Positions 2,633 to 30,504 of a DNA stretch of 64,000 nt are shown piece by piece. Numbering within the stretch: position 1 is the first letter of the stretch; every line of letters begins with the position of its first letter. The position numbers were made by a program, and so were the translations under genes. The notes below the pieces were generated by a model. It was not told where the DNA came from and made no database searches. It saw only the letters and a list, made by a program, of their open reading frames with translations. The stretch comes from an uncultured Candidatus Saccharibacteria bacterium. Its GTDB lineage: Bacteria; Patescibacteriota; Saccharimonadia; Saccharimonadales; JALRHH01. Location of the stretch: positions 35,755 through 99,754 of the forward strand of contig CAYYUY010000002.1 in assembly GCA_964474995.1 (NCBI GenBank). Reading direction: 5' to 3'.

Positions 2633-3346
2633 ATGAAAGTTAGGCTACCAAAACGCCTTAAAGACGGCAGACCTATTGACCCCGAAACTGCAAAAGCTGT
2701 ACGCAAGATACAAGATGACGCAGCTCTGAATAGTGGTAGCAAATACCGTCTTCATGTCTATCACGTATTCAATGACCCAGATTTTGACAAAGATGTCCGA
2801 GAAATACGTAAGTTGTTAGAAAGCTTCTACTACAAAGACATTTCCCTAAATCCAGACTCTGACCACCTACTAAAAGAACACAAACAAGCATTGTTTAATT
2901 TTGCAGCCAGATATTGCATTGACCCAGAGGACCTGCGAACTTATGCAGACGGGCTTTATGATGAGGGTGCAGGTTACGGCTCTGACATTGATGAGTTTGG
3001 CGGTCTTATGGAAACAGGCAGGTACGGATTGGTTTACAAAATTGGACCAAAAACTACATTGGAGCAGATACAAGCAGAGTGGAAAATGCACATTGAGTAC
3101 GCTAAACAAGACTACTACGGCAAGCGATCTGGTAAGAAGCGTTTATCAAAGTTTAACCATGAGCTGGTGTATGCGGTTTTCAAAGCACGGAACAAGCCAA
3201 AGCCTGATAGTTTCACCAAAATACAAAAGGATTATGAGCAAGGAACGCTAGCTGGCTATACAGGCAGCCGACATAAGTATGTAGTCAAAGATGACCTTGA
3301 ACGCTTTTATAACAAGCATAAACCCTATGTAAATACAGCCCTCTAA
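2633..3346 (+). CDS. Hypothetical protein (element 1 cargo)
   Basis: 237-aa ORF in a co-directional gene string with plausible composition. No motif recognised. Confidence 0.5.
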   Translation: MKVRLPKRLKDGRPIDPETAKAVRKIQDDAALNSGSKYRLHVYHVFNDPDFDKDVREIRKLLESFYYKDISLNPDSDHLLKEHKQALFNFAARYCIDPEDLRTYADGLYDEGAGYGSDIDEFGGLMETGRYGLVYKIGPKTTLEQIQAEWKMHIEYAKQDYYGKRSGKKRLSKFNHELVYAVFKARNKPKPDSFTKIQKDYEQGTLAGYTGSRHKYVVKDDLERFYNKHKPYVNTAL

Positions 3347-3419
3347 ACCCCTGCTTTACAAGGCCGTGTTATATGTTGTAATAGGTTCATAATGTAGTGT
3401 ACCCAGAAATGGAAACACT

Positions 3420-3683
3420 ATGAACAACATAAGTAACACACCAAATGAAGAAGCACACATCAGTGATTTTGGACTTGTTGCTGCTTTAGTTACTAGCGGA
3501 TTTGGCATACGGCGCTCCCAGCGTATCAATTCCCGTGTGTATTTCATTTTTGGTAAGACTAATGACCTGCAGAAGACCATAGATGACTACTGGGCTGGTT
3601 TGTTACAGGTCTATGCTCGGCAATACTTTGATAACACCAAAATGCTGAAAAGCCTTATCTATAGTGAGGGGCAAAAGCCATGA
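3420..3683 (+). CDS. Small hypothetical protein (DUF5659-like?)
   Basis: 87 aa. The pattern SDFGLVAALVTSGF...RVYFIFGKT resembles DUF5659, recalled from memory. Its stop overlaps the next start (ATGA). Confidence 0.4.
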   Translation: MNNISNTPNEEAHISDFGLVAALVTSGFGIRRSQRINSRVYFIFGKTNDLQKTIDDYWAGLLQVYARQYFDNTKMLKSLIYSEGQKP

Positions 3684-3925
3684 AGCTTACCCAGCCACAA
3701 ATCAATGAGTTTCAAACTCTCTATAAAGCCCGTTTTGGCACAGACATTGATTATGAAACAGCTGAGCTGGAAGCCACTCAATTAATCCGCTTGGTGAGCA
3801 TGATACAACCACGCAATAAGTTAAGTATAAAAATGGACATGGAACTTAATGACACACCGCTATCGGGTGAAGCCCATGTCTTGGAGCAAGCAGGATATGG
3901 CAAACCAGCACCAAAAAACAGTTAA
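3680..3925 (+). CDS. Small hypothetical protein
   Basis: 81 aa, ATGA-coupled to the upstream ORF. No motif recognised. Confidence 0.4.
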   Translation: MKLTQPQINEFQTLYKARFGTDIDYETAELEATQLIRLVSMIQPRNKLSIKMDMELNDTPLSGEAHVLEQAGYGKPAPKNS

Positions 3926-4403
3926 TGACCTGCTGGGCTTCTTTTACATAGCCTACAATCCAGTATTAGCTAAGATATTTGGACGTAATGAAGCCTTGCT
4001 ACTTGGATTGCTGCTTTATTGGCACGGAAGAGGTGATGACCCTGTGTGGATTTATAAAACCGCACAAGAGATTGAAGCCCAGACCGCCTTAACTCCTGAG
4101 CAGCAGAAGCTTGCTATTAAGCACCTCAAGGCTACGCCGTATGTTCAACAAATACGTGCTGGCTATCAAGGCGTACGTTACTTCAAACTTGATTATGAAT
4201 TACTGCTTAAAGACTTACCTAGTTTGGTTAAAACACACCAACTAGATGAGTTAGTAGCCACTAACAAGAAAGTGTTTAACCCACGAACATTATTAAGAAG
4301 AATACATAACAACATACAAAACAAGAATCAAAACAACACTGGCTATAAAGCACGTGCAGGTCCTGAAAGTATTGGTGCAGTATTTGCACGTAAGAAATAT
4401 TAG
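3849..4403 (+). CDS. Winged-helix-like DNA-binding protein (possible replication/initiator function)
   Basis: FFYIAYNPVLAKIFGRNEALLLGLLLYWH...IYKTAQEIEAQTALTPEQQKLAIKHLK looks like the N-terminal wHTH of phage/plasmid replication organisers. The start is uncertain (ATG at 3849, 3876 or 3897). Confidence 0.35.
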   Translation: MTHRYRVKPMSWSKQDMANQHQKTVNDLLGFFYIAYNPVLAKIFGRNEALLLGLLLYWHGRGDDPVWIYKTAQEIEAQTALTPEQQKLAIKHLKATPYVQQIRAGYQGVRYFKLDYELLLKDLPSLVKTHQLDELVATNKKVFNPRTLLRRIHNNIQNKNQNNTGYKARAGPESIGAVFARKKY

Positions 4404-4488
4404 TAAAGCAGTATATAATTAATAACAGATACGGCAACGGCTTTTTGAAGCAGAGCTTTCTTAAAGCCGTCCGTGAAAAGGAAGCAAG

Positions 4489-6156
4489 ATGAAAGACCTT
4501 ACTCAACTTAGATTCGGATTATATGCACGGAAATCCGAGGAAAACGAAGACCGTCAAGTCCAGTCAATTCAAGACCAAAAGGATGAAATGCAAAAAATAG
4601 CAAAAGAACGTGGCTACACTATTGTTAAAGGCGCAATCTTTTGGGAATCCAAATCAGCCAAAGTGCCTGGCAAGCGTGAAGAGTTTGATAAGCTCATAGC
4701 ATTGGTGCAAGAGGGCAAAATTGACGGCATACTAAGCTGGAAAAGCAACCGTTTATCCCGAAATCCACTAGAGAGTGGCATTATTCAGCAATTGCTGTTT
4801 GATGAAAAACTTAAAGGCATTGTTACTAGTACTAAGACTTACTTGCCAGAAGACAATGCTCTCATTTTCAGCGTTGATTCCAGCATGGATAGTCAGTTTA
4901 GCCGTGATTTAATGGTAGTTGTTCGGCGTGGTATGCACTCAAAGGCTGCAAGGGGTTGGTTCCCAGGTGTACCGCCTATTGGGTATAGGAATCACTATGA
5001 TGAGTTCGGTACACCCAAGAAGACCATTGTGCTTGACCCAGACCGCTGGCACATAATACGCACTATGTGGGACATGATGTTGACAGGCACGTACACCGTG
5101 CCTGAAATTGCCCGTTGGGCAGAGAAAAATGGCTTACGGAGCATTAAGCGCAAGAAAAGTGGTAACAAGCCCATGTCCGTGCCTACTGTTTACGCTATGT
5201 TCCACAATCCGTTTTACGTAGGCTACCTGCGGTTCGGTGGTAAAGTACTTAAAGGTGAGCATGAGCCTATTGTTACGCAAAAGGAGTTTGACCAGGTGCA
5301 GACACTCATTAAACGCTACAATCAAGGCAGACCCGAAGTTAATGATAAGCCTGACCCATTTCCTTACAGAAACATCATTAAGTGCGGTGAGTGTGGCTGT
5401 GCCATAACCTACAGCACAGTTGAGAAGACCTATAAAGACGGCTCTACGCAGCTATTTGAGTATTGCTACTGCACCAGACGACGCAAAGACTACAAGTGTT
5501 CACAGAGCAAAACTATCAAGCCCCAACAGCTTACACGGCTTATACGGGCTGAGCTGGACAAGTACACTATCTTGCCAGAGTTCTTTGAGTGGGCTTGTGA
5601 GTACTTGAGCGAGTTCCACGACGAAGAAGTAGATAAGCAAGAAAAGATATTTGAAGCTCAAACCAAGACCATTAGTGACCTAGAATCCGAATTACGGGAA
5701 CTGGGACGTATGCGCTACAGGGGGCAAGTTGACGACGAGTTCTATGAAACTGAAAAGTTAATGCTGGAAAACAAGCTGACTGTATTACGTGGCGAGTTCA
5801 ACAAACAAGAAGAACACAACAAAGAACTACGCAAACTGTGTGATAAATACTTCAACTTTGCCCGTTATGCCCGTGAAGACTTTGAGAGCCAGGAAGATGA
5901 AAAGCGCCGTGAAGTGCTTTCGTTGGCAGGTCAAAACCTACTGTACGAAGACGGACAACTCCTGTTTGAGCCAATAAAATACCTATCACCATTAGTTGAA
6001 AAGTATCCTGAGCTAGAAAAGCAATATCTTAGCGTCCAAACCCAGCCAGAACAGATGAAAAAGGACGCCGTAGCGTCCATAATTCAAACGTGGTACACCG
6101 GGCTGGATTCGAACCAGCGACCCTCTGTTCCGAAGACAGATGCTCTAATCCACTGA
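4489..6156 (+). CDS. Large serine recombinase (integrase) LSR1
   Basis: Resolvase catalytic domain (LYARKSEENEDRQVQSIQDQ, SWKSNRLSRN), recombinase domain, Cys-rich zinc ribbon (CGECGCAITYS) and coiled-coil region. The last 22 codons are antisense to tRNA-Arg. Confidence 0.85.
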   Translation: MKDLTQLRFGLYARKSEENEDRQVQSIQDQKDEMQKIAKERGYTIVKGAIFWESKSAKVPGKREEFDKLIALVQEGKIDGILSWKSNRLSRNPLESGIIQQLLFDEKLKGIVTSTKTYLPEDNALIFSVDSSMDSQFSRDLMVVVRRGMHSKAARGWFPGVPPIGYRNHYDEFGTPKKTIVLDPDRWHIIRTMWDMMLTGTYTVPEIARWAEKNGLRSIKRKKSGNKPMSVPTVYAMFHNPFYVGYLRFGGKVLKGEHEPIVTQKEFDQVQTLIKRYNQGRPEVNDKPDPFPYRNIIKCGECGCAITYSTVEKTYKDGSTQLFEYCYCTRRRKDYKCSQSKTIKPQQLTRLIRAELDKYTILPEFFEWACEYLSEFHDEEVDKQEKIFEAQTKTISDLESELRELGRMRYRGQVDDEFYETEKLMLENKLTVLRGEFNKQEEHNKELRKLCDKYFNFARYAREDFESQEDEKRREVLSLAGQNLLYEDGQLLFEPIKYLSPLVEKYPELEKQYLSVQTQPEQMKKDAVASIIQTWYTGLDSNQRPSVPKTDALIH

Positions 6157-6167
6157 GCTACCGGTGC
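6091..6167 (-). tRNA. tRNA-Arg(TCG), CCA encoded
   Basis: Hand-folded cloverleaf: GCACCGG/TA/GCTC-AGTGGATTA-GAGC/A/TCTGT-CTTCGGA-ACAGA/GGGTC/GCTGG-TTCGAAT-CCAGC/CCGGTGT/A/CCA. The terminal pair is G1-U72. Confidence 0.85.
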
Positions 6168-10566: not shown

Positions 10567-10705
10567 CAGTAACTCCAATTAATCTCTTGTATTTACAATG
10601 CGCGGCAAAAAAGAGATTAGATTACACCATATCCCTATTCTAGCAGGCCAAAACGGCCATAAAAAACCTTTATTTTTTATACCTTTTGCGGTATATTTAA
10701 GCACT

Positions 10706-12226
10706 ATGAATACAACAAACGAGAAGATTGGTCTATTAATTTATCAGTTACGACAAGAAAGGGGCCTCACGCAGGCTCAGTTCGCGCGTAAACTTGGCAC
10801 CAGCCAGTCTGCGGTCAACCGAATCGAGCACGGCAAACAAAACCTCAGCCTCGAGACACTTGGGCGTATCAGCGATGTTCTCAAGAAGCCGTTGATCTCT
10901 ATCAATGGTGGTGCGATCAATCTCCGTATTGAAGGTGGTCAAGAACTGCACGGTAGTATTGAAACCAAAGTTTCCAAGAATGCTGCTGTCTGTTTGTTGT
11001 TTGCAGCCCTCCTTAATAAAGGCACCACTCGTTTCAAGCGTATGCCACGCATCGAAGAGGTTTACCGTATCATCGAGGTCCTAGTCAGCATCGGTGTCGT
11101 GGTGAAGTGGCTTCCTGGTAACGATCTCGAGATCAAACCACCAGCCATGCTTAACCTCGACAAAATGGATAAGAACGCTGCCCGCAAAACGCGTAGCGTG
11201 ATCATGATGTTTGGTCCACTCATGCACCTCTTTGACGACTTCAAGATCCCCTACGCTGGCGGTTGTAAGCTCGGTACACGTACCGTCCAACCACACTTGT
11301 ATGCACTCGAAGAATTCGGTGTTAACATTGTCGCCAAAACTGGTCACTACCACGTAACTGTCGACAAGAAACAACCCGAAGAGATCGTCCTCTATGAATC
11401 TGGTGATACCACTACCGAAAACGTCATCATGGCTGCCGCTCGTTATGACGGTGAAGTGACCATCAAGATGGCTAGCGCCAACTACATGGTTCAGGACCTC
11501 TGTATTTTCCTCAAGAAACTCGGTGTGAAAATCGAAGGCATCGGCACCAGCACACTCAAGGTTCGTGGCGTCAAAGAGATCAAAAAGAATGTGACTTATA
11601 GTCCAAGCGAAGACCCAATTGAGTCAATGACCTTCATTGCAGCTGCCGTGGCAACCAATTCAGAACTTACCGTTACGCGTTCACCAATTGAATTCCTCGA
11701 ACTTGAAATCCTCAAGTGCCGCAAGATGGGCCTCGTCGTTGATGTCTCTCCAAAATACAAAGCTGATAACGGTCACACCGACCTGGCGGACATCACCGTC
11801 CACAAACACAATGGAACACTCCGTGCACTGGAAGAAAAGATCTATGCCCGTCCATTCCCTGGTCTAAATATCGACAACTTGCCATATTTTGTACCAATCG
11901 CAGCAGTCGCCAAAGGCCGCACCCTAATCCACGACTGGGTCTACGAAGAACGCGCCTTGTATTACACCGAAATGCGTAAGCTCGGTGTCAACGTAACATT
12001 GGCCGATCCACATCGTGCGTATATTGACGGCCCAACCAAATGGGACGCTGCAGATATCGTCTGCCCTCCTGCCCTGCGCCCCGCAGTTTTACTACTTATT
12101 GGTATGCTTGCAGCCAATGGCACATCCATCCTCCGCAACATCTACTCAATCAATCGCGGCTACGAAGACCTCGCTGAACGCCTCAACGCCATTGGTGCCA
12201 ACATCAATGTTATGCACGAACTCTAA
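10706..12226 (+). CDS. murA: MurA-like UDP-GlcNAc 1-carboxyvinyltransferase with N-terminal XRE HTH domain (fusion)
   Basis: Residues 1-60 are an HTH (LRQERGLTQAQFARKLGTSQSAVNRIEHGKQ). The rest is colinear with MurA. It retains KNAA (Lys22 equivalent), GGCKLGTR (catalytic Cys115 equivalent), NIDNLP (Asp305 equivalent) and RGYEDL. The start was set at MNTTNEK, and the 36-codon upstream extension was rejected. Confidence 0.75.
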   Translation: MNTTNEKIGLLIYQLRQERGLTQAQFARKLGTSQSAVNRIEHGKQNLSLETLGRISDVLKKPLISINGGAINLRIEGGQELHGSIETKVSKNAAVCLLFAALLNKGTTRFKRMPRIEEVYRIIEVLVSIGVVVKWLPGNDLEIKPPAMLNLDKMDKNAARKTRSVIMMFGPLMHLFDDFKIPYAGGCKLGTRTVQPHLYALEEFGVNIVAKTGHYHVTVDKKQPEEIVLYESGDTTTENVIMAAARYDGEVTIKMASANYMVQDLCIFLKKLGVKIEGIGTSTLKVRGVKEIKKNVTYSPSEDPIESMTFIAAAVATNSELTVTRSPIEFLELEILKCRKMGLVVDVSPKYKADNGHTDLADITVHKHNGTLRALEEKIYARPFPGLNIDNLPYFVPIAAVAKGRTLIHDWVYEERALYYTEMRKLGVNVTLADPHRAYIDGPTKWDAADIVCPPALRPAVLLLIGMLAANGTSILRNIYSINRGYEDLAERLNAIGANINVMHEL

Positions 12227-12336
12227 CGAAGCGTATTGAGACTATTGGTCTCAAGCCCTGTTCGAAGCCAGACCAAAAACCCAATCGCCACAGCGAGTAG
12301 TACAACTAATATGATTGTTCGGTGCCATTCTTTCAT
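12223..12336 (-). CDS. 37-aa single-TM micro-protein, ATGA-coupled to the sortase stop (below the ORF-track cutoff)
   Basis: Hand translation gives MKEWHRTIILVVLLAVAIGFLVWLRTGLETNSLNTLR. Its ATG (12336-12334) overlaps the sortase TGA (12335-12333). Confidence 0.3.
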   Translation of the reverse strand: MKEWHRTIILVVLLAVAIGFLVWLRTGLETNSLNTLR

Positions 12337-12935
12337 CGGACTGTCTCCAGACTTGCTTGCACTACGAGCCGCTGTTTTGATGTCCACAGCGGCGTACAAG
12401 TGTATAACGTAAGTATTGAGTTGGCTGTCGGCTGCTCGATTGATACATCTTGCGGATCTACAACCTTGATAGCCGCTACTTTATAAGTGTAAGCCTTACC
12501 GTTCCAGTAAAGTCCGATCTCGTCACCCACCCGAACCTTATCAAGGTTATAGAACGGCGGCGTATTGTGATAGGTAAAACGATGACCAACAAGTACTGTG
12601 TTGCTCATTTTGTCCGGGCTACTGGACCGTGGCCGATGCCAAATACCTTTGTCGACAGTATAGACGCTCTCACCTTCGAGTACTTTTTCACGGACACCAA
12701 TTGACGGAATCACCAACGTATTATCAGCAGGAATATCTTCAGACCTTACTTGTTGCACAGTGGCCTTACGTGGGCTCGAAACGACCGGTGCATCATGGCG
12801 CACCCACCATGAAACCGCAGGTAATATCGGTAACAGTAGTATATATAAGGCCATCACCACAATAACTCCAGTCAGTACGTCGTTGAATGACTTGAGGGTG
12901 AGATATTTTCTGAACGCTGTGCGTAATTTGTGCAT
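12333..12935 (-). CDS. Sortase (catalytically intact)
   Basis: N-terminal TM. His in VLVGHRF, TLYTC Cys motif and downstream Arg (QRLVV) are all present. The start was set at MHKLRT, preceded by AGGAG. Confidence 0.8.
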   Translation of the reverse strand: MHKLRTAFRKYLTLKSFNDVLTGVIVVMALYILLLPILPAVSWWVRHDAPVVSSPRKATVQQVRSEDIPADNTLVIPSIGVREKVLEGESVYTVDKGIWHRPRSSSPDKMSNTVLVGHRFTYHNTPPFYNLDKVRVGDEIGLYWNGKAYTYKVAAIKVVDPQDVSIEQPTANSILTLYTCTPLWTSKQRLVVQASLETVR

Positions 12936-13163
12936 TATCTCCTCATAATACCCACATTTTGCATAAAAACACCCTGTAATATTACTTTTTTGCAAAAAGG
13001 AGAAAATCTGGCTTGCAAAAACGGATCAAGAGAGGTATTAAACTAAGTACAACAAACAAGTGAAATCCAAAACATTTCACATTGTGAGTCTTCCTAGGTG
13101 TGATGGAAAACGAGCGATTGCGAGTCGTATAGCGTGTAGTTAGATCAATGAAAGGATCCGTTT

Positions 13164-16100
13164 ATGGCCATCTCAATTAGCCCCCGACATATTAAGCGTC
13201 TCAAAAGTTCTCTCGTAGCTATGCTATTCGTGGCAACGCAAGTGGTTTTTCCATTTGCCGCTGGTGGCATCGCAAGCGCAGCTGCATCGATTGGCGTCAG
13301 TACTAGTCAAGGTCAAGAATTCCCTTCACTTACCTGGTCATCAGGCAACATAACCACCTATCAAGAAGGTGATTTTATTAACTTCCGTTTTGATGTCAGT
13401 ACAAGCGGTGCGTCAAGTGGGCAGATGAAAGTCCAATACGCCAATGATGAATGTGGCTTCTTTGATGGGTCATTCGCACTCCTCACGACAACAAACACCT
13501 CCGGCGCCACGCCAACGGTTGCCAAGGTTGGCCCATCCACGCTAGTAGGCTCAGACTGGGAGCAAGTACTGTCAGTCAACTTCACGGGTGCTGGTACCGA
13601 TACTATTAATTACAAACTCAAGCTTGGCCAAGACGCCGGCCAATGTAATGGATCTTCAACTCACGTCGTGCTTGATAATGTAAACGGACCTGCCGGTGGC
13701 GACTTCAGCAACATTGGAGCTTTGACTGTTCCGATTCCCGCAAAAGATATCATTGAATTACCAGAGATATTTGTCACCAAAAAGGTTGATACAAATGGCG
13801 ATGGCGTATCAGACCGCAACGCTACCGCTGGCGAATGGTCATTCAGCCTTGATGGTGGCACGCCAGTTGCGACAGATGCCAATGGACAAGTAACATTCAC
13901 GAATGTGATCCCAAATGGTACACATATCATTACTGAAGTGAACGGGCCACCTGACCAGTCATTCCTCAGTGGAAGTGGCTCAGGCTGCACCTTTAACGGC
14001 TCTACTGCGACAGCTACCGTTCAGTCGGGTACAACATCAACTGATGCAACTTGTGTATTTACCAATACTGTCAAAAAAGGTTCTATAACCATCGTCAAAG
14101 ATGCTACACCTGATAGTACGCAAGTTTTTCACTTCTCGACTACTACTAACAGCTCAGTCTTCCCTGCGTTTGATCTTGATGATGACGGCAGCAACGTAAA
14201 CGCACACTCAAACACCCAGACATATAGCAACTTACTTTCCGGTACATACACCGTAACCGAGGACAACACACCTGGCTGGGATTTCTCAAGCCTGTCTTGC
14301 AACAACGCAGCAGGTGCAGTCTCCGGCAAGACGGCTACCATCACTATTACTTCCGGCCAAAACGTTGTCTGTACGTACGGCAACACACAGCAAGGTACAA
14401 TCACGGTTAACAAATCCCTATCACCTACAAACGATCCTGGTAAATTTAACCTCCAGATCAATGGCGTAACCGCTGGTACTGGGGCAAATGTTGGTAACGG
14501 CGGTACGACTGGTACACAGAGTTATAGTGCAGGCGGCAGCTTCACTGTTGGCGAGACACAAGGTAATGTTGGTATACTCAGCGACTACACCAGTAGTTAC
14601 ACATGCCTGGATAATGGCAACTCTCTTGTGTCAGGTAGCGGCACTCTTTCAAGCAGCTTCAGCCTGGGGGCTGGTCACAATGTTGTCTGTACATTCACAA
14701 ACACTCGTAACACGGGTTCTGTGACCGTCAATAAGATGCTTCGTAGCGATGCAACCGGTTCATTCCTTCCTGCAAACCCAGGCATATTCACCTGGGGGCT
14801 TGATAGTGGCGCCACAACAAATGCTATGGGCAGCACGCTTTCAAGTATCAATACCGGATCACACAGCGTTGCCGAAAATAGCGTCACCGGATATCACCCA
14901 GTTGGTTGGTATCTTACTAGTGACACACAGCACTCATGCCTAAATCCTACGAGTAGCACCTTCCCTATCGATGTAGCTGTCACGACTGGCCAAACGGCAA
15001 GTGTCACGATATGTAACGCCCGCGATACGGGTACACTGCAAGTGCTCAAGAACGTCGATCTAAACGCTGACGGTGACTTCAGTGACCCTGGCGAGACAAA
15101 TAGTGATGCTTGGCAGTGGCAAGCAAACGGCGGCACAAACCACACTACCGGTGATGCACCAATCGCAGTGGTAACTGACAATTACACCCTCACCGAAACA
15201 GGTTCAACAGATTACCACAACACAGGATTTAGCTGTACTGGTGGTATCTACAACGGCACTACCGTGACTGTGGCCACTGGTGACAACGCTGTCTGTACAT
15301 TCGTAAATGTTCGCAACACTGGGCTTATCAGCTTCCTCAAAAATGTCGTCGGTGGCACTGCAAGTGCAAGCGATTGGCTGTTTACGGTTAGCGACGCAGC
15401 TGGCACCACCGCACACAGTGGTGACTCTCGTACGATACTCACTGGTAGCTATGGTGTATTGGAATCGGGTGGCCCAATTGGATACACACTCACAACTGAC
15501 AATACTCCAGGGAATGTATGTACGCTCAGTAACGGCATCATTACATTAATGGTCAGTCAAGCCGGCGGACTGTGTAGCATCACCAACACTCGCGATACTG
15601 GCTCGGTCAAGGTTAACAAGCTCCTCGATAATGATGGTAATGGAACATTTGAGCTCACCAACCCTGGTGACTTCAGCTGGAACATCGACACCACACCTGT
15701 AAGCACCAACAATGCCATGGGCACAACGCTACCCGGTGTCGAGACGAATCCTTACCATGTAACCGAGAATTCACCAGCAAACTACCACCCAGTTGGCTGG
15801 TTTACTGGCAGCCCTACAAGCACACAGAACCCGTGTACTAATCTAACGAATACAACCCTCCCGGCTGGTATCAATGTCACAAAAGACCAGACCACAGAAA
15901 TCACACTCTGTAATGCTCGTGACACCGGTACCGTTACCGTCAATAAATCACTGGTACCTGCATCTGACTCCGGCAAGTTTAACCTCAACATAAACGGCAT
16001 TACAAAGACTGCCGTAGGAGGCGTCGGTGATGGCGGCACGACCGGTGCGGTCATCGTACCAACTGCAGCTGCACAAACTGCCTCCGAAACCGCAGCCCCT

Positions 16101-17816
16101 GGCACAAGCCTGGATGACTACACTTCATCATGGACTTGTACGAACGGCCTCGCAGGTGACGGCACTACGACCACCGTATTCTCAGTTGTGACTAGTGAAA
16201 ATGTGACATGTACATTCATCAATGTTCGCAAGGCATCACTAACCATCACTAAAGATGCCAATCCAGATAGCGACCAAGACTTTACATTCACACTCGGCCA
16301 GCAAGATCCAAATGATCTACAAAGCCCGGCAACGATCATCAAGTCATTCATACTTGACGATGATGCAGATGCCACACATTCAAACACCGAACAAACTACC
16401 AGCCTCGTACCTGGCACCTACGTTATAGACGAAGCCGCTACTACCGGCTGGGACCTCACGAATGTCAACTGCGGCGAAGGTATTCAGTTCAGCAGACAAG
16501 ATGGCACAATCACCCTCACAATTGCAGCGGGTGCAAACATCACTTGTACGTTCACCAACACGCAGCGCGGCAGTATCACGATCATCAAGGATGCACAGCC
16601 CGATTCCGATCAGGCATTTACCTTCACTGGTAACCTTACCGGTGACAATGGGCCGAACTTCACACTGACCGACAACGGAAGCCTGGATGGCATGCAGCAG
16701 CGTGTATTCAATAACATGCCCCAAGGAACATACACCGTAACCGAACCTAATAACGTAAAAGGTTGGGATTTGACCGACATCACATGCGTGGGCGGCTCAG
16801 ACAAAACAACCGATACCCACGAACGTAACGCAGTTATCAAGCTCAAGCCTGGTGAGAATGTCACCTGTACCTTCACCAACGAAGCTGTACCGCCAACCAT
16901 AAAAGTCATCAAGCATGTCATCAACGATGATGGTGGTGCCATGGACGCAAGCAACTTCACTATGCACGTCACATCAAATGACACTGAAGCTGCTCACTTC
17001 CCAGGTGATGAAGCAGGTACCACAACTGCGGTCGCCGTTGGTAGCTACTCAGTCGACGAAGACCAACTGCCAGGTTACACTGCCAGCTTCAGCGAAGGAT
17101 GCTCCGGCACCGTCGAGCTTGGAGACAAAGTCACCTGTACTATTACCAATAATGACAACCCTGCAAGTCTGACCATTACCAAATCAAATGATCAGGTCGG
17201 CCCAGCATCAGTCGGTGATGATGTTACGTACACGCTCACCATTACAAACCCAGATACCGAGGAACACCCTGGTGGCGTCGTCTACAACACGGCTGTCACA
17301 GACCTTCCTCCAGACAACTTCGAGTACGTTGCTGGTAGCTGGTCAGCCAGTTCTACTGTTCCTGAGCACAACGTCGGAACTGATATATCAGAAGGTAGCC
17401 CAACACACGAGCCAACCTATGGATCACCTGGTGTGTGGCATATTGGTACCATGCTTCCAGGTGAAGTCATTACGCTCCTCTACCATGTCCACATCCTCCA
17501 AAATGTTACCGCTGGTACGTACCCTGACCTGGCCTTTGCTCGGGGCGCTACACAGAACAGTACGGTAGTCTTGGCCGGCTGTACTGGCGTATCCTGTGTC
17601 AATGCAAGCGGAACACCATTTGTAGGTACGCAGGTAAGTCTTGCACTCGCCACCGTACCGCCAAAAGTCTTCACCGCAAGTAAGGTGTCTGAACTAGTTA
17701 ATACTGGTCAGCCTATCTTGCCACAGCAAGTCATCGTACCGATATTACTACTCCTCGGAGCATACATAACCCGCCGGGCTGCACCCCGTAGTCTCAGCAA
17801 AGGAGGCCGACTATGA
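13164..17816 (+). CDS. 1550-aa sortase-substrate surface adhesin with about 12 tandem SpaA/prealbumin-like beta-sandwich modules, a DUF11 domain and an LVNTG sorting signal
   Basis: Signal peptide. Repeated module ends of the type CTFTNT(R/Q)xxGx(V/I)T(V/I)xK. DUF11-like VGDDVTYTLTITNPD. The C-terminus has LVNTG, a hydrophobic stretch and RRAAPR. Confidence 0.85.
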   Translation: MAISISPRHIKRLKSSLVAMLFVATQVVFPFAAGGIASAAASIGVSTSQGQEFPSLTWSSGNITTYQEGDFINFRFDVSTSGASSGQMKVQYANDECGFFDGSFALLTTTNTSGATPTVAKVGPSTLVGSDWEQVLSVNFTGAGTDTINYKLKLGQDAGQCNGSSTHVVLDNVNGPAGGDFSNIGALTVPIPAKDIIELPEIFVTKKVDTNGDGVSDRNATAGEWSFSLDGGTPVATDANGQVTFTNVIPNGTHIITEVNGPPDQSFLSGSGSGCTFNGSTATATVQSGTTSTDATCVFTNTVKKGSITIVKDATPDSTQVFHFSTTTNSSVFPAFDLDDDGSNVNAHSNTQTYSNLLSGTYTVTEDNTPGWDFSSLSCNNAAGAVSGKTATITITSGQNVVCTYGNTQQGTITVNKSLSPTNDPGKFNLQINGVTAGTGANVGNGGTTGTQSYSAGGSFTVGETQGNVGILSDYTSSYTCLDNGNSLVSGSGTLSSSFSLGAGHNVVCTFTNTRNTGSVTVNKMLRSDATGSFLPANPGIFTWGLDSGATTNAMGSTLSSINTGSHSVAENSVTGYHPVGWYLTSDTQHSCLNPTSSTFPIDVAVTTGQTASVTICNARDTGTLQVLKNVDLNADGDFSDPGETNSDAWQWQANGGTNHTTGDAPIAVVTDNYTLTETGSTDYHNTGFSCTGGIYNGTTVTVATGDNAVCTFVNVRNTGLISFLKNVVGGTASASDWLFTVSDAAGTTAHSGDSRTILTGSYGVLESGGPIGYTLTTDNTPGNVCTLSNGIITLMVSQAGGLCSITNTRDTGSVKVNKLLDNDGNGTFELTNPGDFSWNIDTTPVSTNNAMGTTLPGVETNPYHVTENSPANYHPVGWFTGSPTSTQNPCTNLTNTTLPAGINVTKDQTTEITLCNARDTGTVTVNKSLVPASDSGKFNLNINGITKTAVGGVGDGGTTGAVIVPTAAAQTASETAAPGTSLDDYTSSWTCTNGLAGDGTTTTVFSVVTSENVTCTFINVRKASLTITKDANPDSDQDFTFTLGQQDPNDLQSPATIIKSFILDDDADATHSNTEQTTSLVPGTYVIDEAATTGWDLTNVNCGEGIQFSRQDGTITLTIAAGANITCTFTNTQRGSITIIKDAQPDSDQAFTFTGNLTGDNGPNFTLTDNGSLDGMQQRVFNNMPQGTYTVTEPNNVKGWDLTDITCVGGSDKTTDTHERNAVIKLKPGENVTCTFTNEAVPPTIKVIKHVINDDGGAMDASNFTMHVTSNDTEAAHFPGDEAGTTTAVAVGSYSVDEDQLPGYTASFSEGCSGTVELGDKVTCTITNNDNPASLTITKSNDQVGPASVGDDVTYTLTITNPDTEEHPGGVVYNTAVTDLPPDNFEYVAGSWSASSTVPEHNVGTDISEGSPTHEPTYGSPGVWHIGTMLPGEVITLLYHVHILQNVTAGTYPDLAFARGATQNSTVVLAGCTGVSCVNASGTPFVGTQVSLALATVPPKVFTASKVSELVNTGQPILPQQVIVPILLLLGAYITRRAAPRSLSKGGRL

Positions 17817-18808
17817 ACCGTTTTAAAATCGCAGTAGCTGCCTTTGTCAGTACACTCGCACTCTCACTTGGATTGGTTGCTTCAGCTGCCACAGCTTGGC
17901 ACCTTGATATCTCGACACCAAACAGTGTCCAGACGAGTCATACATTCAACGTGCAGTACACAGTGCTCGCAACCGATAACGCCAACTTCACCGTACAGCT
18001 GCTCCAGAATGAAGTACCAGTTGGTAGCCCCCAAAATACCAACACCGACCCAAACGGTCTCAATGGTAACTCTGGTACCTTTGCCGTCAACGTACCAAGC
18101 GATGGTAGCTACAAGTACCAGGTACAAGCGACATGTAGCTGTGGTGGTGCGTCGCAAACAACAGCTCCAAAGACAGTGAACGTCGACGCAACCGCGCCAG
18201 CCGCCCCAACCTACAACGGCAAAACTCGTAGCGGTAATGCGTACACCATCAGCTTCAAAGCTCCAGCCGATGCTGATGTACAGACAGTCAAGATCTTTGC
18301 ATCAACTAGTAGCAGTTTTACTGCAAATAGTGCCACACAGATTGGCACTGTTAACGTCAGTCCAAGCCAAGTTGTCAGCTTCGGCTACAATGCGCCGGAT
18401 GGCACTCCACGATTCGTCGCAGTCCAAGCATTTGACGGTGCTGGCAATGGCTCAAACGCAGTCGGTGACCCAAACATCGTGGTCGTCACCCAAGCTACCT
18501 CAACCACTACAGGTAGTGGCGTAAATGGTGGCGGTAGTGGCGCAGGCGGCGCTACAAATGGAACAGTTGAAGGTGCAACCACTGGCGGCACCAATGGTTC
18601 AGCTACAAATGGACAAGGACAAGTTAACAGTAATGGTTCCTCAAGCTCACAGGCTGGTGTACTCGGTACCGAAACTGGCAAAAAAGCAGCTCAGAAGAAT
18701 CACTTCCCTTGGGGCCCAAGCATCATTGCGGTCCTTGCCGTAGGCAGCGCTGCATACTATTGGTTCATCCACCGTGCGGGCCGAGGCTTCTTCATCCGAG
18801 GCGAATAA
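17813..18808 (+). CDS. Surface protein with Ig/FN3-like domains, Gly/Ser/Thr-rich stalk and C-terminal TM anchor
   Basis: Signal peptide. FN3-like segment PAAPTYNGKTRSGNAYTISFKAP...VKIFAS. GGSGAGGATNG linker. Terminal TM followed by HRAGRG. ATGA-coupled to the adhesin gene. Confidence 0.7.
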   Translation: MNRFKIAVAAFVSTLALSLGLVASAATAWHLDISTPNSVQTSHTFNVQYTVLATDNANFTVQLLQNEVPVGSPQNTNTDPNGLNGNSGTFAVNVPSDGSYKYQVQATCSCGGASQTTAPKTVNVDATAPAAPTYNGKTRSGNAYTISFKAPADADVQTVKIFASTSSSFTANSATQIGTVNVSPSQVVSFGYNAPDGTPRFVAVQAFDGAGNGSNAVGDPNIVVVTQATSTTTGSGVNGGGSGAGGATNGTVEGATTGGTNGSATNGQGQVNSNGSSSSQAGVLGTETGKKAAQKNHFPWGPSIIAVLAVGSAAYYWFIHRAGRGFFIRGE

Positions 18809-18821
18809 ACTTTCTTAGATA

Positions 18822-19166
18822 TTAGCTACGCTTCGGTAACGGAACAGTCAACATAAATATACCCATCAACGTAGCCGGTCCAAATGCTGATCGGCTATTT
18901 TGATGAGCTGGAGGTTGATTCTGATTATCAGTCACAAGCGAACGCTGTATGCTCACAGCTAGCTCATGTGCTGGCTTTGACTGGTTACAACCTTCAGGGA
19001 TGAGTCTCGATACCTGCGTCGTACCATCATTGATAATTTCGATCGTACACTGCATGGGCGTGACTGCGATACTGAGTGAGGTGTTTGCGGCTGCGTGCAC
19101 ATGGCCAGACGTTGCCACAAAAGAGAACACAGCAAGCCCGGTGGCCAATATAATACGGAAAAACAT
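18822..19166 (-). CDS. Small secreted/anchored hypothetical protein
   Basis: 114 aa with a signal peptide (VATSGHVHAA) and a hydrophobic C-terminus. Its start overlaps the upstream stop (TAATG). Confidence 0.5.
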   Translation of the reverse strand: MFFRIILATGLAVFSFVATSGHVHAAANTSLSIAVTPMQCTIEIINDGTTQVSRLIPEGCNQSKPAHELAVSIQRSLVTDNQNQPPAHQNSRSAFGPATLMGIFMLTVPLPKRS

Positions 19167-20833
19167 TAGTTTGCCACCACTGTAAGAGTCAAATTTAGAC
19201 TATAGGAGCCCGGAAGTTGCCCTCCTGGTATTTGCTGCGATGCCGAGATACCGGTCACGTCCCAGTAACACCAGGCGTCAGTGCCTGCAGACGAGTTTAG
19301 TAGTGTAATTGCGTTGATACTGCCCTCTGAAAATGCCGATGAGGACCCTTTGCTGATGCCCGTACCACTACATACAGGCCGCGGAGTAACAGTACTCACT
19401 GACGGGTTAATCGTTAGCTGACCACCTTTACTATCGGGGTCACCGCTATCGCTACACCCGCCAGGGCTTCCTCCACTGTCATTGTAGTCATAGGCGTTAG
19501 TGCCACCATCAGACCACAAGGCCGTAGCGCCACCGGTTGCCGCAATGCTAACCGTCCAGCTTGGGTCATCTGTGGTGTTTTTAAGGCGCAATTTCTGGGC
19601 TGCGGTACCTATGGTTGCAGTTGTTGAACCACATACAACTGGTACGATTAAACTACTGAACCCAAACGATGGCGAGCCAACTGATATCCCGGAGGCGTCA
19701 ACGATGTCAGTGTTCAAACTTCCGGCGGAGGAAGTGGTTATCTCAGGGTACGTCGTGTAGGTTGTAAAAGCAGCTGTACCCGCGACGAGACGAAAGCAGT
19801 AAGTAGTATTGGGTGCGCCTGCCGTACCAACAAGTGAAAAATCCCATAGGCCATCTTGGCCAATGCCCACATTACTGGCAGTACTTGCGGGGTTGGACTC
19901 GGTGTATTTCTCAGTAATCTTAGTATCACTTGCATGCGTTGGATCGTTGGCATTCGTAGTTAGCGTCGAGCCATCGGCTGGACTACTATTATCAAACGGC
20001 GCAAAGGCAGTACTGCCATTAACATCGGCATATGTCAGCGTTGAGCATGCAGCTGTTTTTTGAGCAATTTGTAACTTGAAGGTTTCGCCGCCGGCAAATA
20101 ACGTGGTCGTCGTTACGTGCACAAGCATGCGGAGTCGTACACGATCTCTTGGAGCATAAAGTGTGGGGCCAGTATTTTGAGCCGCCAGTGCTGGACCGAC
20201 GTCCGTACTGTTATTATTATCAAACCATCGATACGCTGATTGATTGTAGTCAGGCATATCGTACGTAATGGTGACTGTTACAAAATCTAGTGAAAAGTTG
20301 ACTCCGAACAAGCCTGATCGTTTCGCACCAATTTGTGTGCCAAATGCCGTGTTTAAAAGGTCACCCCGTGCCCATGAGCGACAAGATGTTACGTCTGCCA
20401 CAAATGTAGTATCCGAGGTTGGACCACTAGTATCGGCAACAGCAGTTCCAGGGCACGGACTACCACCAACCATAGCCTGTACGCTCAACGTAACAGTATC
20501 TAATGCGTTATTTGTCTTATACTGAGCATTAATTTTGACGTTGGTAATCTTGGCATTAATCGGTAAATTACTGTCAAAATTATAGGTATTCCAGATACCA
20601 TTAACCGTAGCGTTATTCGCCGGGCTTGATGTGGCATAGACGTTGTTGTCAGCCGTTCCTTGGGCGTTTGCTGGGTTTGTCCAGCCATTCGTGCCCTGGC
20701 CTCCAGCACCATTTGTAAGCGTTAAGCCAGTTGCAGCATGAACCTTGATCGGTAGCCCAACAATCCACGATATGACGAGTGCTATCAAGATGACAGTAAC
20801 CCTTGTCAGTTCAAATGCATGACGCTTGTGCAT
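19166..20833 (-). CDS. Large secreted protein with C-terminal WxL-like domain
   Basis: Signal peptide. The C-terminal ~190 aa are paralogous to the whole of 22040..22726 (QLTINPSV/QLTIDPSV, AITLLN/AITLIN, SYSLNLTLTVVAN/SYSVNLTLTATAL). The pattern resembles the WxL cell-surface domain. Confidence 0.55.
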   Translation of the reverse strand: MHKRHAFELTRVTVILIALVISWIVGLPIKVHAATGLTLTNGAGGQGTNGWTNPANAQGTADNNVYATSSPANNATVNGIWNTYNFDSNLPINAKITNVKINAQYKTNNALDTVTLSVQAMVGGSPCPGTAVADTSGPTSDTTFVADVTSCRSWARGDLLNTAFGTQIGAKRSGLFGVNFSLDFVTVTITYDMPDYNQSAYRWFDNNNSTDVGPALAAQNTGPTLYAPRDRVRLRMLVHVTTTTLFAGGETFKLQIAQKTAACSTLTYADVNGSTAFAPFDNSSPADGSTLTTNANDPTHASDTKITEKYTESNPASTASNVGIGQDGLWDFSLVGTAGAPNTTYCFRLVAGTAAFTTYTTYPEITTSSAGSLNTDIVDASGISVGSPSFGFSSLIVPVVCGSTTATIGTAAQKLRLKNTTDDPSWTVSIAATGGATALWSDGGTNAYDYNDSGGSPGGCSDSGDPDSKGGQLTINPSVSTVTPRPVCSGTGISKGSSSAFSEGSINAITLLNSSAGTDAWCYWDVTGISASQQIPGGQLPGSYSLNLTLTVVAN

Positions 20834-20839
20834 GCGAAG

Positions 20840-21979
20840 TTACCGTTTCTTATCTTCGACAGGAAGCTTGATGTTGCTGCCCGGCTTGAGCTCATACGGG
20901 GCTTTAAGCTTGTTCATGCGGGCGACCAGCTTCCAATTTGTGTGGAAATCCTTGGCCAAACTGTTGATTGTGTCACCAGAGCCAACAACAAAGGTTTGCC
21001 ATTTTTTGGCTCGCTTAGTGTTGCGTCGCTTGCGCCAAATAAGCCAAATAATAATCAGCGTGATGAGGATCACAAAAAGTAGATAAATAATAGTTTGGGC
21101 ACCAGCAGGTGCAACGAAGAAACACGCAGTTGGACCTGTCGCCTGAGTATTTTTAGGGCCATTCCCAAGTGCTTGCGTTGGGTCGTTATTATATTTGGCA
21201 GTCCCTTCGGCTTTGTACCAACCACCCCACTGCGGTCGAGGAAACTCGTAATTAAGTTCCGTGGCCTGTTTCTGTGCGAGGAATGGATAGGTCCCGCCAT
21301 TGGCATATATTTTTGTGCCATAGCAGCTTTTTACATCGACGTGCACATCAGCATCAAGCGATACATTACCCCTGTTTTCGAGGCTTGCAGTTACGACATA
21401 CTTAGCTGGCCCTGGTTTGACGGTCAGCCCAGCAAAGTCCAATGACTTTTTGATATCACCCGGTACCGTGATTGCCATACGAAGTGCTGATCGGAAGCTG
21501 AGCTGTACGCCGTTACCGCCGGCGGTTGGCGCTTCTTTTGATTGCACCACCACGCAGCCATTATGCTCGCCAACATCAGCTGTCTTTGGGACAGTTACGG
21601 TAAACGCAACATTCTGTGACGTATTATTCGCAAGATGCAGGCTGGTCGTCGTCAGTTTTATCCACGAGCCAACAGCTTTTGGTGAGTCGCTCTTTTGGGC
21701 GCACGTAAATGAGCCGCCACTCGCGACCTCAGAGTCAGTCGCATACACATCAATATCTTTTGCCTGACCAGTGTTATTGACGACCTTAATTGCGTCTGTC
21801 TTGCTGGCACCGTTGGCCAATGTGTAGACAAAGATCGACTTGGTGCGAGGGTTATTTGGATCAGGATTTGCGGGCACGCCTCCAAGGCCGCCATAGTCGA
21901 CGGCCGAAACAGCTGCTGGTACTGTGATTACCCCAATCAATACCAAACATAAAACAAGAAAGGAACGCCTCGCAAACAT
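20840..21979 (-). CDS. DUF916/DUF3324-like cell-surface protein with TM segment and C-terminal LysM domain
   Basis: VDYGGLGGVPANPDPNNPRTKSIFVYTL...VVNNTGQAKDIDVYATDS matches the DUF916 pattern. TM IIYLLFVILITLIIIWLIW. The C-terminus YVVGSGDTINSLAKDF...ELKPGSNIKLP is LysM. Confidence 0.55.
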   Translation of the reverse strand: MFARRSFLVLCLVLIGVITVPAAVSAVDYGGLGGVPANPDPNNPRTKSIFVYTLANGASKTDAIKVVNNTGQAKDIDVYATDSEVASGGSFTCAQKSDSPKAVGSWIKLTTTSLHLANNTSQNVAFTVTVPKTADVGEHNGCVVVQSKEAPTAGGNGVQLSFRSALRMAITVPGDIKKSLDFAGLTVKPGPAKYVVTASLENRGNVSLDADVHVDVKSCYGTKIYANGGTYPFLAQKQATELNYEFPRPQWGGWYKAEGTAKYNNDPTQALGNGPKNTQATGPTACFFVAPAGAQTIIYLLFVILITLIIIWLIWRKRRNTKRAKKWQTFVVGSGDTINSLAKDFHTNWKLVARMNKLKAPYELKPGSNIKLPVEDKKR

Positions 21980-22039
21980 ACTTCCCCTTTGGTCACTATT
22001 GTACCCGGGAAGTAGGCCGAACGTCTAGGAGAAAACGAA

Positions 22040-22726
22040 TTACAGTGCGGTTGCAGTAAGTGTCAGATTGACACTATACGAATCGACAGGTGTTTCTGCC
22101 GGGATTGTTTGGCTCAGTCCCGCACCTGTCAGGTAACCGCGCCAGACATCGTCTGAGGTTGCCCCAGCGTTGATAAGTGTGATCGCGTCTGTAGTGCTCT
22201 GGTTAAAGCCTGTTGATGCCCCCTTCGTGACACCTGTCAATGTACAGCTTGCACAGTCAGTCGTAAGTGTACCTACAGATGGATCAATCGTGAGCTGGCC
22301 AGAAGATACGTCAACATCTGCACCGTCAGTACAACCGCCGGTAGTTGGATCGTTGAAATCAAAGAAGTTTGTAGCGCCACCGTTTGCCCACCTGGCAGTT
22401 GGACCAGCTGTTGCAGCAATGGCGAGTGTGAAGCCATTATTAGCTGCCCCTGGATTCGTTACGTACAGACGTTGTGTGTTGGTACCAAGCGTACCTGTTG
22501 AAGCACTGGCGCCAGTCTGACAATCAAAAGAAAAGGCTTTTGAGCTCATGGCGGCCGAAGGTGATGCGACTGGCGTACGAGTGGCATCGAGGATATCAGT
22601 CGAGAGGACACCAGCAGTAATTGTCTGGGTAAGGGTTGAGTTCGAAGCTGCAAACACAACACCACCGAATAAGGCCGTCAGTGCGAGCGACCAAACTACT
22701 CCGTGTAATGCTTTTAGTTTTTTCAT
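22040..22726 (-). CDS. WxL-like domain secreted protein
   Basis: Signal peptide followed by a single domain paralogous to the C-terminus of 19166..20833. It is the first gene of a four-gene minus-strand operon. Confidence 0.55.
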   Translation of the reverse strand: MKKLKALHGVVWSLALTALFGGVVFAASNSTLTQTITAGVLSTDILDATRTPVASPSAAMSSKAFSFDCQTGASASTGTLGTNTQRLYVTNPGAANNGFTLAIAATAGPTARWANGGATNFFDFNDPTTGGCTDGADVDVSSGQLTIDPSVGTLTTDCASCTLTGVTKGASTGFNQSTTDAITLINAGATSDDVWRGYLTGAGLSQTIPAETPVDSYSVNLTLTATAL

Positions 22727-22802: not shown

Positions 22803-22836
22803 CCAAACAAAAAACCAGTCACCAGGACTGGTTTTT
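22803..22836 (-). terminator. Rho-independent (bidirectional-looking) terminator
   Basis: AAAACCAGTC-ACCAG-GACTGGTTTT forms a 10-bp stem flanked by A- and T-runs. It separates the tRNA-His region from the WxL operon promoter. Confidence 0.65.
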
Positions 22837-22840
22837 TGTT

Positions 22841-22859
22841 TGGGGCGAGCTATGGGGAT
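22841..22859. repeat. Orphan copy of the tRNA-His 3' end (identical to 23013-23031)
   Basis: TGGGGCGAGCTATGGGGAT occurs at both positions, 172 bp apart in direct orientation. This is an att-scar-like arrangement. Confidence 0.9.
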
Positions 22860-29888: not shown

Positions 29889-30095
29889 ATGGCAAAAACC
29901 CCACCCAATAGTGGTAAGTCTTGGTCTAGCAGCGACGTAGCAAAGTTACGTTCGCTAGCTCATGGCAACACACCAACGCGCGTAGCTGGCCTCAAACTAG
30001 GCCGCACCCCAGGTGCTGTGCAGACCAAGGCGTCTGAGCTGAACATCAGTCTCAAACCAACAAACCAATCGCCGTACGGCACTAAAAAGAAATAA
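29889..30095 (+). CDS. Small Myb/SANT-like DNA-binding protein
   Basis: GKSWSSSDVAKLRSLAHGNTPTRVAGLKLGRTPGAVQTKASEL fits the W-x3-(D/E)-x2-L...GRT...helix pattern. The start was set at MAKTPP; the track start is 29835. Confidence 0.35.
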   Translation: MAKTPPNSGKSWSSSDVAKLRSLAHGNTPTRVAGLKLGRTPGAVQTKASELNISLKPTNQSPYGTKKK

Positions 30096-30484: not shown

Positions 30485-30504
30485 TTCAAGGAAGGACTAA
30501 ATGA

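Follow-up and report, generated by a model that had tools for sequence, protein, structure and literature searches.

A large part of bacterial diversity belongs to Patescibacteria, most of which live attached to other cells, and we know of few components of their attachment machinery apart from type IV pili. The locus described here raises the question of whether one of them, an uncultured Candidatus Saccharibacteria bacterium, displays proteins on its surface through a system of the WxL type. The locus consists of four genes on the minus strand (positions 18822 to 22726) of a 64,000-nucleotide stretch of contig CAYYUY010000002.1, referred to below as the window. An earlier note on the window had read this locus as part of a 10.5-kb surface-adhesion region, combining a sortase and an LVNTG adhesin with a Firmicutes-style csc cluster of WxL and DUF916 proteins. 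We found this observation to be partly confirmed and its interpretation partly supported. In our reading, which we hold at a probability of about 0.72, positions 18822 to 22726 encode a divergent WxL-type, non-covalent surface-display complex.

Organization of the operon

Seven open reading frames (ORFs), all present where the earlier note had placed them, occupy positions 12333 to 22726 and are divided into two unrelated modules (Table 1). The module of interest comprises the genes for proteins of 228, 379, 555, and 114 amino acids (aa), in the order of transcription. They are separated by 60 nt, by 6 nt, and by a 1-nt overlap of the 114-aa gene with the stop codon of the preceding 555-aa gene, and form one operon. 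Base composition is even across this region. The closest homologues, with 64 to 77% identity, are found in metagenome-assembled genomes (MAGs) of Candidatus Saccharimonadales. Pfam and NCBIfam scans assigned no family to the 228-, 555-, or 114-aa protein. A WxL cluster has been defined as at least one WxLIP plus two WxL proteins (Hassan et al. 2023), and the consecutive 228-, 379-, and 555-aa genes correspond to this definition, provided that the WxL-like domain described below counts as WxL.

A predicted WxLIP with a LysM tail

In Pfam, the 379-aa protein scores just above the cutoff for DUF916/WxLIP_PGBD (PF06030; 28.3 versus 27.3 bits), and about half of 120 homologues carry the same domain. 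In profile-profile comparison by hhalign, the family aligned with nine Firmicutes DUF916-plus-DUF3324 proteins at a probability of 97.5% (E value, 7e-12; 237 columns), in a colinear full-length alignment extending through the second domain, and with eight DUF916 proteins from Actinobacteria and Deinococcus at 99.94% (E value, 1.7e-36; 269 columns). When the domains were compared separately, the first one matched Firmicutes DUF916 at 96% (E value, 5e-9). The second domain, which occupies the position of DUF3324 in the Firmicutes proteins, had no Pfam match and no significant similarity by itself to Firmicutes DUF3324 (hhalign, 2%); by itself it aligned with the actinobacterial second domain at 96% (E value, 2.8e-9). 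Because of these comparisons, whole and by domain, we take the 379-aa protein to be a WxLIP of the actinobacterial type, as judged by sequence. Of the DUF916/DUF3324-like character claimed earlier, the DUF916 part stands, and DUF3324 is not supported on its own.

All WxLIP families have in common a signal peptide, one membrane helix near the C-terminus, and a basic tail; in the 379-aa protein, these were recognized from its sequence and from hydropathy and charge analysis. Firmicutes and actinobacterial WxLIPs have a short basic tail only, whereas a LysM domain is added after the helix in those of Patescibacteria. In the 379-aa protein, this LysM (PF01476; E value, 9e-9; 35.6 bits versus a cutoff of 20.9) comes after the sole membrane helix and a basic cluster of +8, and a PDB sequence search with the protein returned LysM matches only. 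Of 54 full-length orthologues across Patescibacteria, 50 retain the domain. In the 120 homologues, the 15 residues that follow the helix contain on average 5.8 Lys plus Arg, versus 1.3 in those before it, and the tail following the helix is 57 to 114 aa long. As the LysM comes after both the helix and a strongly basic stretch, its predicted location is the cytoplasmic side of the membrane, where the positive-inside rule places it in 115 of the 120 homologues. This prediction contradicts the earlier proposal that the LysM serves as an extra peptidoglycan-binding handle.

The shared C-terminal domain

That the 228- and 555-aa proteins share a domain of approximately 190 aa was borne out: residues 367 to 554 of the latter and 35 to 227 of the former are 43% identical (E value, 2e-35). 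The 228-aa protein has 596 homologues at 60 to 77% identity, none of which carries a Pfam domain, and a search with the domain profile among 1.84 billion representative proteins yielded 736 clusters (at 50% identity) with E values of ≤0.001. Proteins carrying the domain range from 161 to 2069 aa in length. The domain either stands alone as a small single-domain protein or forms the C-terminal end of a large multidomain one, and it runs to within 3 aa of the C-terminus in 309 of the 311 members retrieved.

A first W-x-L motif is present in more than 90% of the family; it reads F-T-L in the 228-aa protein of the window and W-T-V in the 555-aa protein. The family keeps this motif together with Asn at W-8 and hydrophobic residues at W-10 and W+4, positions which were highlighted by Hassan & Williamson; the W-8 residue is Asp in Firmicutes WxL proteins. 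In the second motif, L, M, or F takes the place of Trp (…SYSLNLTLTVVAN; pattern, …Y.[IL]N[LMF]T[LIV]T..A). Besides, the Patescibacteria domain contains an Asp- and Cys-rich insertion of about 25 aa (…YDFND..G.P.GC.DG.D.D…). The four near-invariant Cys residues and the Asp-rich insertion are absent from Firmicutes and Actinobacteria WxL proteins, and this part may form a disulfide-stabilized or metal-binding loop.

To compare this domain with WxL, we assembled 12 Firmicutes plasmid proteins annotated as "WxL domain-containing protein," each encoded beside a "DUF916 and DUF3324" gene; a WxL-like bait sequence was used solely to fetch these annotated genes and supports no conclusion. Nine small or large actinobacterial proteins encoded beside DUF916 genes were added. 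These nine match the Firmicutes WxL model with E values of 5e-12 to 1e-2, their family aligns with Firmicutes WxL at an hhalign probability of 97 to 98%, and they likewise have no second Trp. Against the 12 Firmicutes proteins alone, the Patescibacteria profile gave borderline results (7 to 56% probability). Against the 21 combined proteins, it gave 68% in local mode (E value, 4.8e-5; 141 columns) and 78% in global mode (P value, 2e-6; 160 columns), so that hhalign support became convincing only once the actinobacterial proteins were included. The score of 37.3 compares with 12.3 for the reversed target and with 15.7 ± 1.9 (maximum, 20.8; z score, 11) for 60 block-shuffled targets, none of which reached the real value; the global alignment gave a z score of 9.4 over 60 block-shuffled targets.

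An independent WxL model, built from the 21 non-Patescibacteria sequences only, was then searched against 2029 ORFs from 68 related loci and the window. At E<0.01, the ORFs detected were 26 family members and none besides; the numbers of family members and other ORFs were 48 and 0 at E<0.1 and 71 and 1 at E<1, with alignments running end to end. Other comparisons added nothing: hhalign against single actinobacterial sequences was uninformative (E values, 0.2 to 0.3), tblastn of the 228-aa protein against plasmids returned one chance match only, and a PDB sequence search with this protein returned noise only.

Comparison with known WxL systems

More than 91% of the WxL clusters described in the literature belong to Firmicutes. 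We compared the operon with CscA-D of Lactobacillus plantarum, WxL loci A-C of Enterococcus faecium, and the elr operon of Enterococcus faecalis (Siezen 2006, PMC1534035; Hassan & Williamson, PMC9772566, PMC10599100). The minimal set of these clusters, namely, a small WxL protein, a WxLIP, and a large WxL protein with N-terminal binding domains, is the same in the window, and the order on Enterococcus mundtii plasmids (small WxL, DUF916/DUF3324, large WxL, and small ORF) is identical to that of the operon. The window differs from the Firmicutes systems in that its domain reaches neither the dual Trp-x-Leu signature nor the Pfam WxL threshold, DUF3324 (HBD) is not independently recognizable in its WxLIP, an LPXTG partner is missing from the operon, and a LysM follows the membrane helix. 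The small secreted protein described earlier exists as the 114-aa protein, and no LPXTG-like motif was found in it or in its seven homologues, which are confined to close relatives (six loci and L082, the closest relative). As it has no sortase signal, its candidacy as an equivalent of CscD and other LPXTG partners was ruled out.

Actinobacterial and Deinococcus clusters, for example, on plasmids of Streptomyces, Arthrobacter, Clavibacter, and Embleya, have the same WxLIP architecture with an Arg-rich tail, and this is the group that gave the 99.94% alignment. Their small WxL gene lies directly upstream of the WxLIP gene and their large proteins end in a WxL domain, as in the window. Their second motif has no Trp (…TLTVTAI, TITHSVL), which is also the case in the window (…NLTLTVVAN). 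They differ from the window in having no LysM tail and no Asp/Cys insertion, the latter occurring in the Patescibacteria domain only. Furthermore, actinobacterial WxL proteins are found by the Firmicutes WxL model (E values down to 5e-12), whereas the Patescibacteria domain requires profile-profile methods. The closest relatives of the operon are the actinobacterial DUF916/WxL clusters, not the Firmicutes ones; of the Firmicutes-style csc cluster described earlier, the csc-type order of small WxL, WxLIP, and large WxL was retained and the Firmicutes affinity was not.

On the Actinobacteria and Deinococcus plasmids (L001-L003 and L083-L087), DUF916 genes are flanked by WxL homologues without a second Trp, mostly annotated as "hypothetical"; one combines a RICIN domain with a WxL domain at the C-terminus. 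Since such unannotated homologues flank DUF916 genes there, WxL clusters seem to be under-annotated outside Firmicutes. Several of these actinobacterial loci adjoin GH43 glycosidases and sugar ATP-binding cassette (ABC) transporters.

Our literature search found no paper linking WxL or DUF916 to Saccharibacteria or to the Candidate Phyla Radiation (CPR), that is, Patescibacteria. A cluster in a cultured Saccharibacterium, SEML1_0625-0628 of Southlakia epibionticum ML1, is found solely in supplementary Table S2 of Wang et al. (2023, Cell); the text of that paper does not discuss it. There, the top structural match is "WxL domain-containing protein" (0.85) for SEML1_0627 and "DUF916 domain-containing protein" (0.83) for SEML1_0626, and a 1284-aa FN3-repeat protein adjoins the WxL and DUF916 genes. 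The DUF916 protein has 316 aa and no recorded LysM, in contrast to the 379-aa LysM-bearing protein of the window; the likeness between the two clusters is seen in the structural matches given in the table.

Assessment of the WxL assignment

Several results weigh against reading the operon as a WxL-type display complex. No match to Pfam WxL (PF13731) was obtained for the window proteins at E≤1 or for 48 homologues at E≤10, and the domain fails the dual Trp-x-Leu criterion, which places the second motif in a C-terminal Y…LTWxLxxxP. The 228-aa protein of the window aligns end to end (residues 28 to 226) with the independent WxL model at an E value of only 0.33, ranking second of 191 ORFs. AlphaFold2 modeled the 228-aa protein at a predicted local distance difference test score (pLDDT) of 64, with long segments below 50, and Foldseek found no PDB match to this model at E≤0.001; to our knowledge, no WxL structure has been solved so far. 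The predicted cytoplasmic LysM is left unexplained by the display model. Finally, SEML1_0626-0628 were non-essential for epibiotic growth of S. epibionticum in transposon sequencing (Tn-seq) (Wang et al. 2023).

The modeling of the domain deserves two further remarks. The best Foldseek match of the 228-aa model, a FimA-like protein (probability, 0.77), lay above the E value limit of 0.001. The same domain was modeled well (pLDDT, about 90) as the C-terminal part of the 555-aa protein and poorly as the free-standing 228-aa protein. This gap may be technical, as the alignments differed, or may mirror a published notion, namely, that small WxL proteins depend on a strand supplied by a partner.

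The missing Pfam match, the missing second Trp, and hhalign probabilities below 80% would all fit a convergent or compositional resemblance, in which the domain is an unrelated Thr/Ser/Gly-rich beta domain encoded beside a DUF916 gene. We regard such a coincidence as very improbable. The reversal and block-shuffle controls speak against it, as do the 48 family members and 0 other ORFs of 2029 detected by the independent model at E<0.1 and the colinear, end-to-end alignment. The pairing of a small and a large protein, the C-terminal placement, and the obligatory DUF916 neighbor match known clusters, and the actinobacterial WxL proteins bridge both motif variants. We conclude from the profile comparisons that the ~190-aa domain is most probably a divergent WxL homologue lying outside the formal Pfam and dual-Trp criteria; the earlier description of the 228- and 555-aa proteins as WxL-like fails the Pfam check and holds by profile methods.

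Conservation across Patescibacteria

A scan for related loci, restricted to a single genome of each species, yielded 68 of them, belonging to Saccharimonadales, Doudna-, Gracili-, Peregrini-/Peri-, Dojka-, and Falkowbacteria, and unclassified Patescibacteria. The small gene is followed directly by a WxLIP-like gene in 54 of the 68 loci, and 43 show the full order of small, WxLIP, and large genes, the large protein having 349 to 1914 aa; several loci contain two tandem small genes. The remaining loci mostly represent truncated contigs or alternative-code lineages in which ORF calls broke. In loci of Gracilibacteria and Peribacteria (L045, L047-L049, L060-L062, L067, and L070), the WxL-like and DUF916-like genes are fragmented under translation table 11, which is consistent with UGA recoding (genetic code 25). 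The synteny counts are therefore lower bounds. Some records titled Gammaproteobacteria, Pseudomonadales, or Limnocylindria (L024, L040, L046, L054, L056, L064, L072, L079, and L080) also contain a trio of the Patescibacteria type with 46 to 64% identity, and these are likely mislabeled or contaminated MAGs. Synteny of flanking genes is not conserved beyond the closest relative. Thus, mapping the distribution, as the earlier note had recommended, revealed a widespread trio; rather than an oddity of one ultra-small genome, the cluster is a conserved module, with the domain in 736 clusters and many Patescibacteria classes represented.

Such breadth could also mean that the operon is a housekeeping envelope module organizing the wall or a surface layer, not a host-attachment device, with the small subunit and the WxLIP being structural parts of the Patescibacteria cell envelope. 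This would agree with the conservation of the trio across many classes, with the unusually conserved small subunit (60 to 77% identity over hundreds of homologues), and with the LysM tail in 50 of 54 orthologues. It agrees less well with the large subunit, whose cargo is highly variable in size and domains, as is typical of adhesins or ligand-binding proteins, and with the dispensability of the related S. epibionticum cluster, and we consider it unlikely. In terms of the display complex that we favor, the scaffold of small subunit and WxLIP is conserved in Patescibacteria while the large-subunit cargo varies, from about 350 to about 1900 aa.

A more daring extension is that the LysM-tailed trio represents an ancestral, phylum-wide scaffold for fast-evolving host-recognition adhesins, whose cytoplasmic LysM, about 12 residues from the inner leaflet, binds precursors containing lipid II or N-acetylglucosamine (GlcNAc) or a divisome component. 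This is a long shot in our estimation. If true, the surface complex would be installed where new wall is made, and wall synthesis and adhesin display would be joined by a transmembrane link with no known counterpart in the WxL systems of Firmicutes and Actinobacteria.

Cargo domains and a proposed mechanism

The 555-aa protein was modeled by AlphaFold2 from 34 homologues with a pLDDT of 91 and a predicted template modeling score (pTM) of 0.72. Foldseek against PDB matched this model to beta-sandwich or jelly-roll binding modules (E values, 5e-5 to 3e-3), including MAM-Ig, the carbohydrate-binding modules (CBMs) CBM15 and CBM36, a xylanase CBM, the Fbs1 sugar-binding domain, the immunoglobulin (Ig)-like domains of PrgB, and integrin calf/thigh domains. 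Several matches reached a probability of about 1.0 with low whole-chain TM-scores. In homologues, the cargo N-terminal to the domain includes Calx-beta, Kelch, SBBP, DUF2341, Laminin_G_3, and DUF7483 domains, and many have no assignment. A role of the N-terminal part of the 555-aa protein in binding a glycan or a surface is plausible.

According to the published working model, the WxLIP binds and stabilizes WxL proteins on peptidoglycan, and large WxL proteins present host-binding domains. In the mechanism that we propose, all four operon products are secreted, and the 379-aa WxLIP-like protein is kept in the membrane by its C-terminal helix with two Ig-like domains exposed. Its DUF916 domain would dock and stabilize the WxL-like domains of the 228- and 555-aa proteins at the cell wall, and the 555-aa protein would point its N-terminal lectin- or CBM-like beta-sandwich domains outward to bind a glycan or a surface polymer. 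For a Saccharibacterium living as an epibiont, this target would likely be on a partner cell. The comparisons above show that the individual parts are homologous to known ones, that the gene order is shared, that the domain is strictly C-terminal, and that the module is conserved; the physical complex, the wall binding, the host-cell target, and a role in adhesion or partner-cell attachment are inferred.

The CBM-like folds could instead serve uptake, with the complex capturing polysaccharide for nutrition, as in the original "csc" hypothesis for Lactobacillus plantarum. The Foldseek matches to CBM15, CBM36, xylanase CBMs, and Fbs1, the Laminin_G_3/ConA-like cargo of one homologue, and the GH43 glycosidases, RICIN-domain protein, and sugar ABC transporters adjoining the actinobacterial relatives are compatible with this idea. 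However, neither in the window nor in the 68 screened loci does a glycoside hydrolase or sugar transporter adjoin the operon, and the TM-scores of the CBM matches are low, owing to the multidomain query. We judge a nutritional role improbable, to about the same degree as a housekeeping one.

The adjoining sortase/adhesin block

The sortase and the 1550-aa LVNTG adhesin had been correctly recognized. The former matches Pfam PF04203 (E value, 1e-27) and contains the motifs VGHRF, LYTCTP, and QRLVV with the His, Cys, and Arg residues; its best NCBIfam match is class E, below the curated cutoff. The adhesin has about 14 SpaA/prealbumin-fold repeats according to Pfam and ends in …LVNTGQPILPQQVIVPILLLLGAYITRR…, that is, LVNTG, a hydrophobic stretch, and a basic tail (RR), which is the sole sortase-signal-like C-terminus in the window. 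The start codon of the 331-aa gene overlaps the adhesin stop codon. The 331-aa protein was previously described as FN3-like and anchored. An anchor is present as a terminal membrane helix in place of a sortase signal; as for FN3, only sub-threshold Ig-like matches were found.

No homologues of the sortase, the adhesin, or the 331-aa protein were found within 7 kb in the 68 related loci. In the closest relative (77% identity), the operon and an ORF resembling the 114-aa gene converge directly on an HTH-MurA-like gene and SHMT, the genes that flank the sortase/adhesin block in the window. As the block is absent between the operon and the HTH-MurA-like gene in that relative, the ~6.6 kb at 12227 to 18821 is an insertion in the window genome or a deletion in the relative. 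The HTH-MurA-like gene (10598 to 12226) encodes a MurA-like protein of the EPSP_synthase fold with an N-terminal HTH_3 DNA-binding domain, and the same fusion occurs in the closest relative (L082, 4232 to 5848). Positions 12333 to 18808 are an independent covalent-anchoring module, located next to the operon in this genome only.

These results bear on the original view of the 10.5 kb as a single adhesion island whose sortase, LVNTG adhesin, and WxL/DUF916 proteins cooperate, in the manner of Firmicutes csc clusters with their LPXTG proteins. The modules are indeed adjacent, with convergent genes 13 nt apart, and a small LPXTG protein is part of many Firmicutes WxL clusters. Nevertheless, the block is not linked to the operon in any relative, the 68 loci and the closest relative included, and a sortase signal is missing from the small protein of the operon itself. 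One integrated locus is thus very unlikely, and the view is already largely refuted by synteny.

Other features of the window

Two further regions stand out by base composition. Positions 1 to 6167 are low in GC (0.42 to 0.44 versus about 0.48 to 0.51 elsewhere); at the end of this stretch, the gene for a 555-aa large serine recombinase (4489 to 6156) overlaps a tRNA gene (6094 to 6167), and the region looks like an integrated mobile element. A second low-GC stretch (30001 to 38241; 0.40 to 0.44) contains an HNH endonuclease gene (32500 to 33483) and one for a 631-aa large serine recombinase (36346 to 38241) that overlaps a tRNA gene (38157 to 38229). The other ORFs there matched no Pfam family, and the stretch looks like a second integrated element.

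Table 1. Coordinates of the operon and the adjoining block in the window
Feature	Position	Strand	Remarks
Sortase	12333-12995	-	Separate module
Adhesin, 1550 aa	13164-17816	+	SpaA-type repeats, LVNTG signal; separate module
LVNTG sorting signal of adhesin	17694-17708	+	
Secreted protein, 331 aa	17813-18808	+	Membrane anchor; separate module
Small secreted protein, 114 aa	18822-19166	-	Last operon gene; conserved Cys pair
Large WxL-like protein, 555 aa	19166-20833	-	Signal peptide, N-terminal beta-sandwich cargo (~aa 34-360), C-terminal WxL-like domain
C-terminal WxL-like domain of 555-aa protein	19169-19741	-	aa 365-555
WxLIP/CscA-like protein, 379 aa	20840-21979	-	Signal peptide, DUF916, second Ig-like domain, membrane helix, basic cluster, LysM
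LysM domain of 379-aa protein	20861-20989	-	aa 331-373
Single C-terminal membrane helix of 379-aa protein	21035-21094	-	aa 296-315, followed by RKRRNTKRAKK
Second Ig-like domain of 379-aa protein	21125-21499	-	~aa 161-285
DUF916/WxLIP_PGBD domain of 379-aa protein	21545-21862	-	aa 40-145
Small WxL-like protein, 228 aa	22040-22726	-	First operon gene; signal peptide and one ~190-aa domain
Strong terminator-like hairpin, 18-bp stem	22803-22843	-	Between tRNA-His and operon; upstream operon boundary

Implications

The operon is a distant, previously unrecognized relative of the Gram-positive WxL display clusters. Its conservation across the ultra-small Patescibacteria makes it a plausible candidate for the scaffold that carries adhesins on their surface. 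Through it, hundreds of "hypothetical" Patescibacteria proteins are tied to WxL/WxLIP display; none of the 736 clusters is recognized as WxL by Pfam. The strictly C-terminal 190-aa domain provides a simple sequence tag by which proteins that are displayed on the surface, and that probably bind a host, can be listed for any CPR genome. WxL clusters thus reach beyond Firmicutes to Actinobacteria, Deinococcus, and Patescibacteria, and this wide distribution suggests that they are an old feature of single-membrane cell envelopes.

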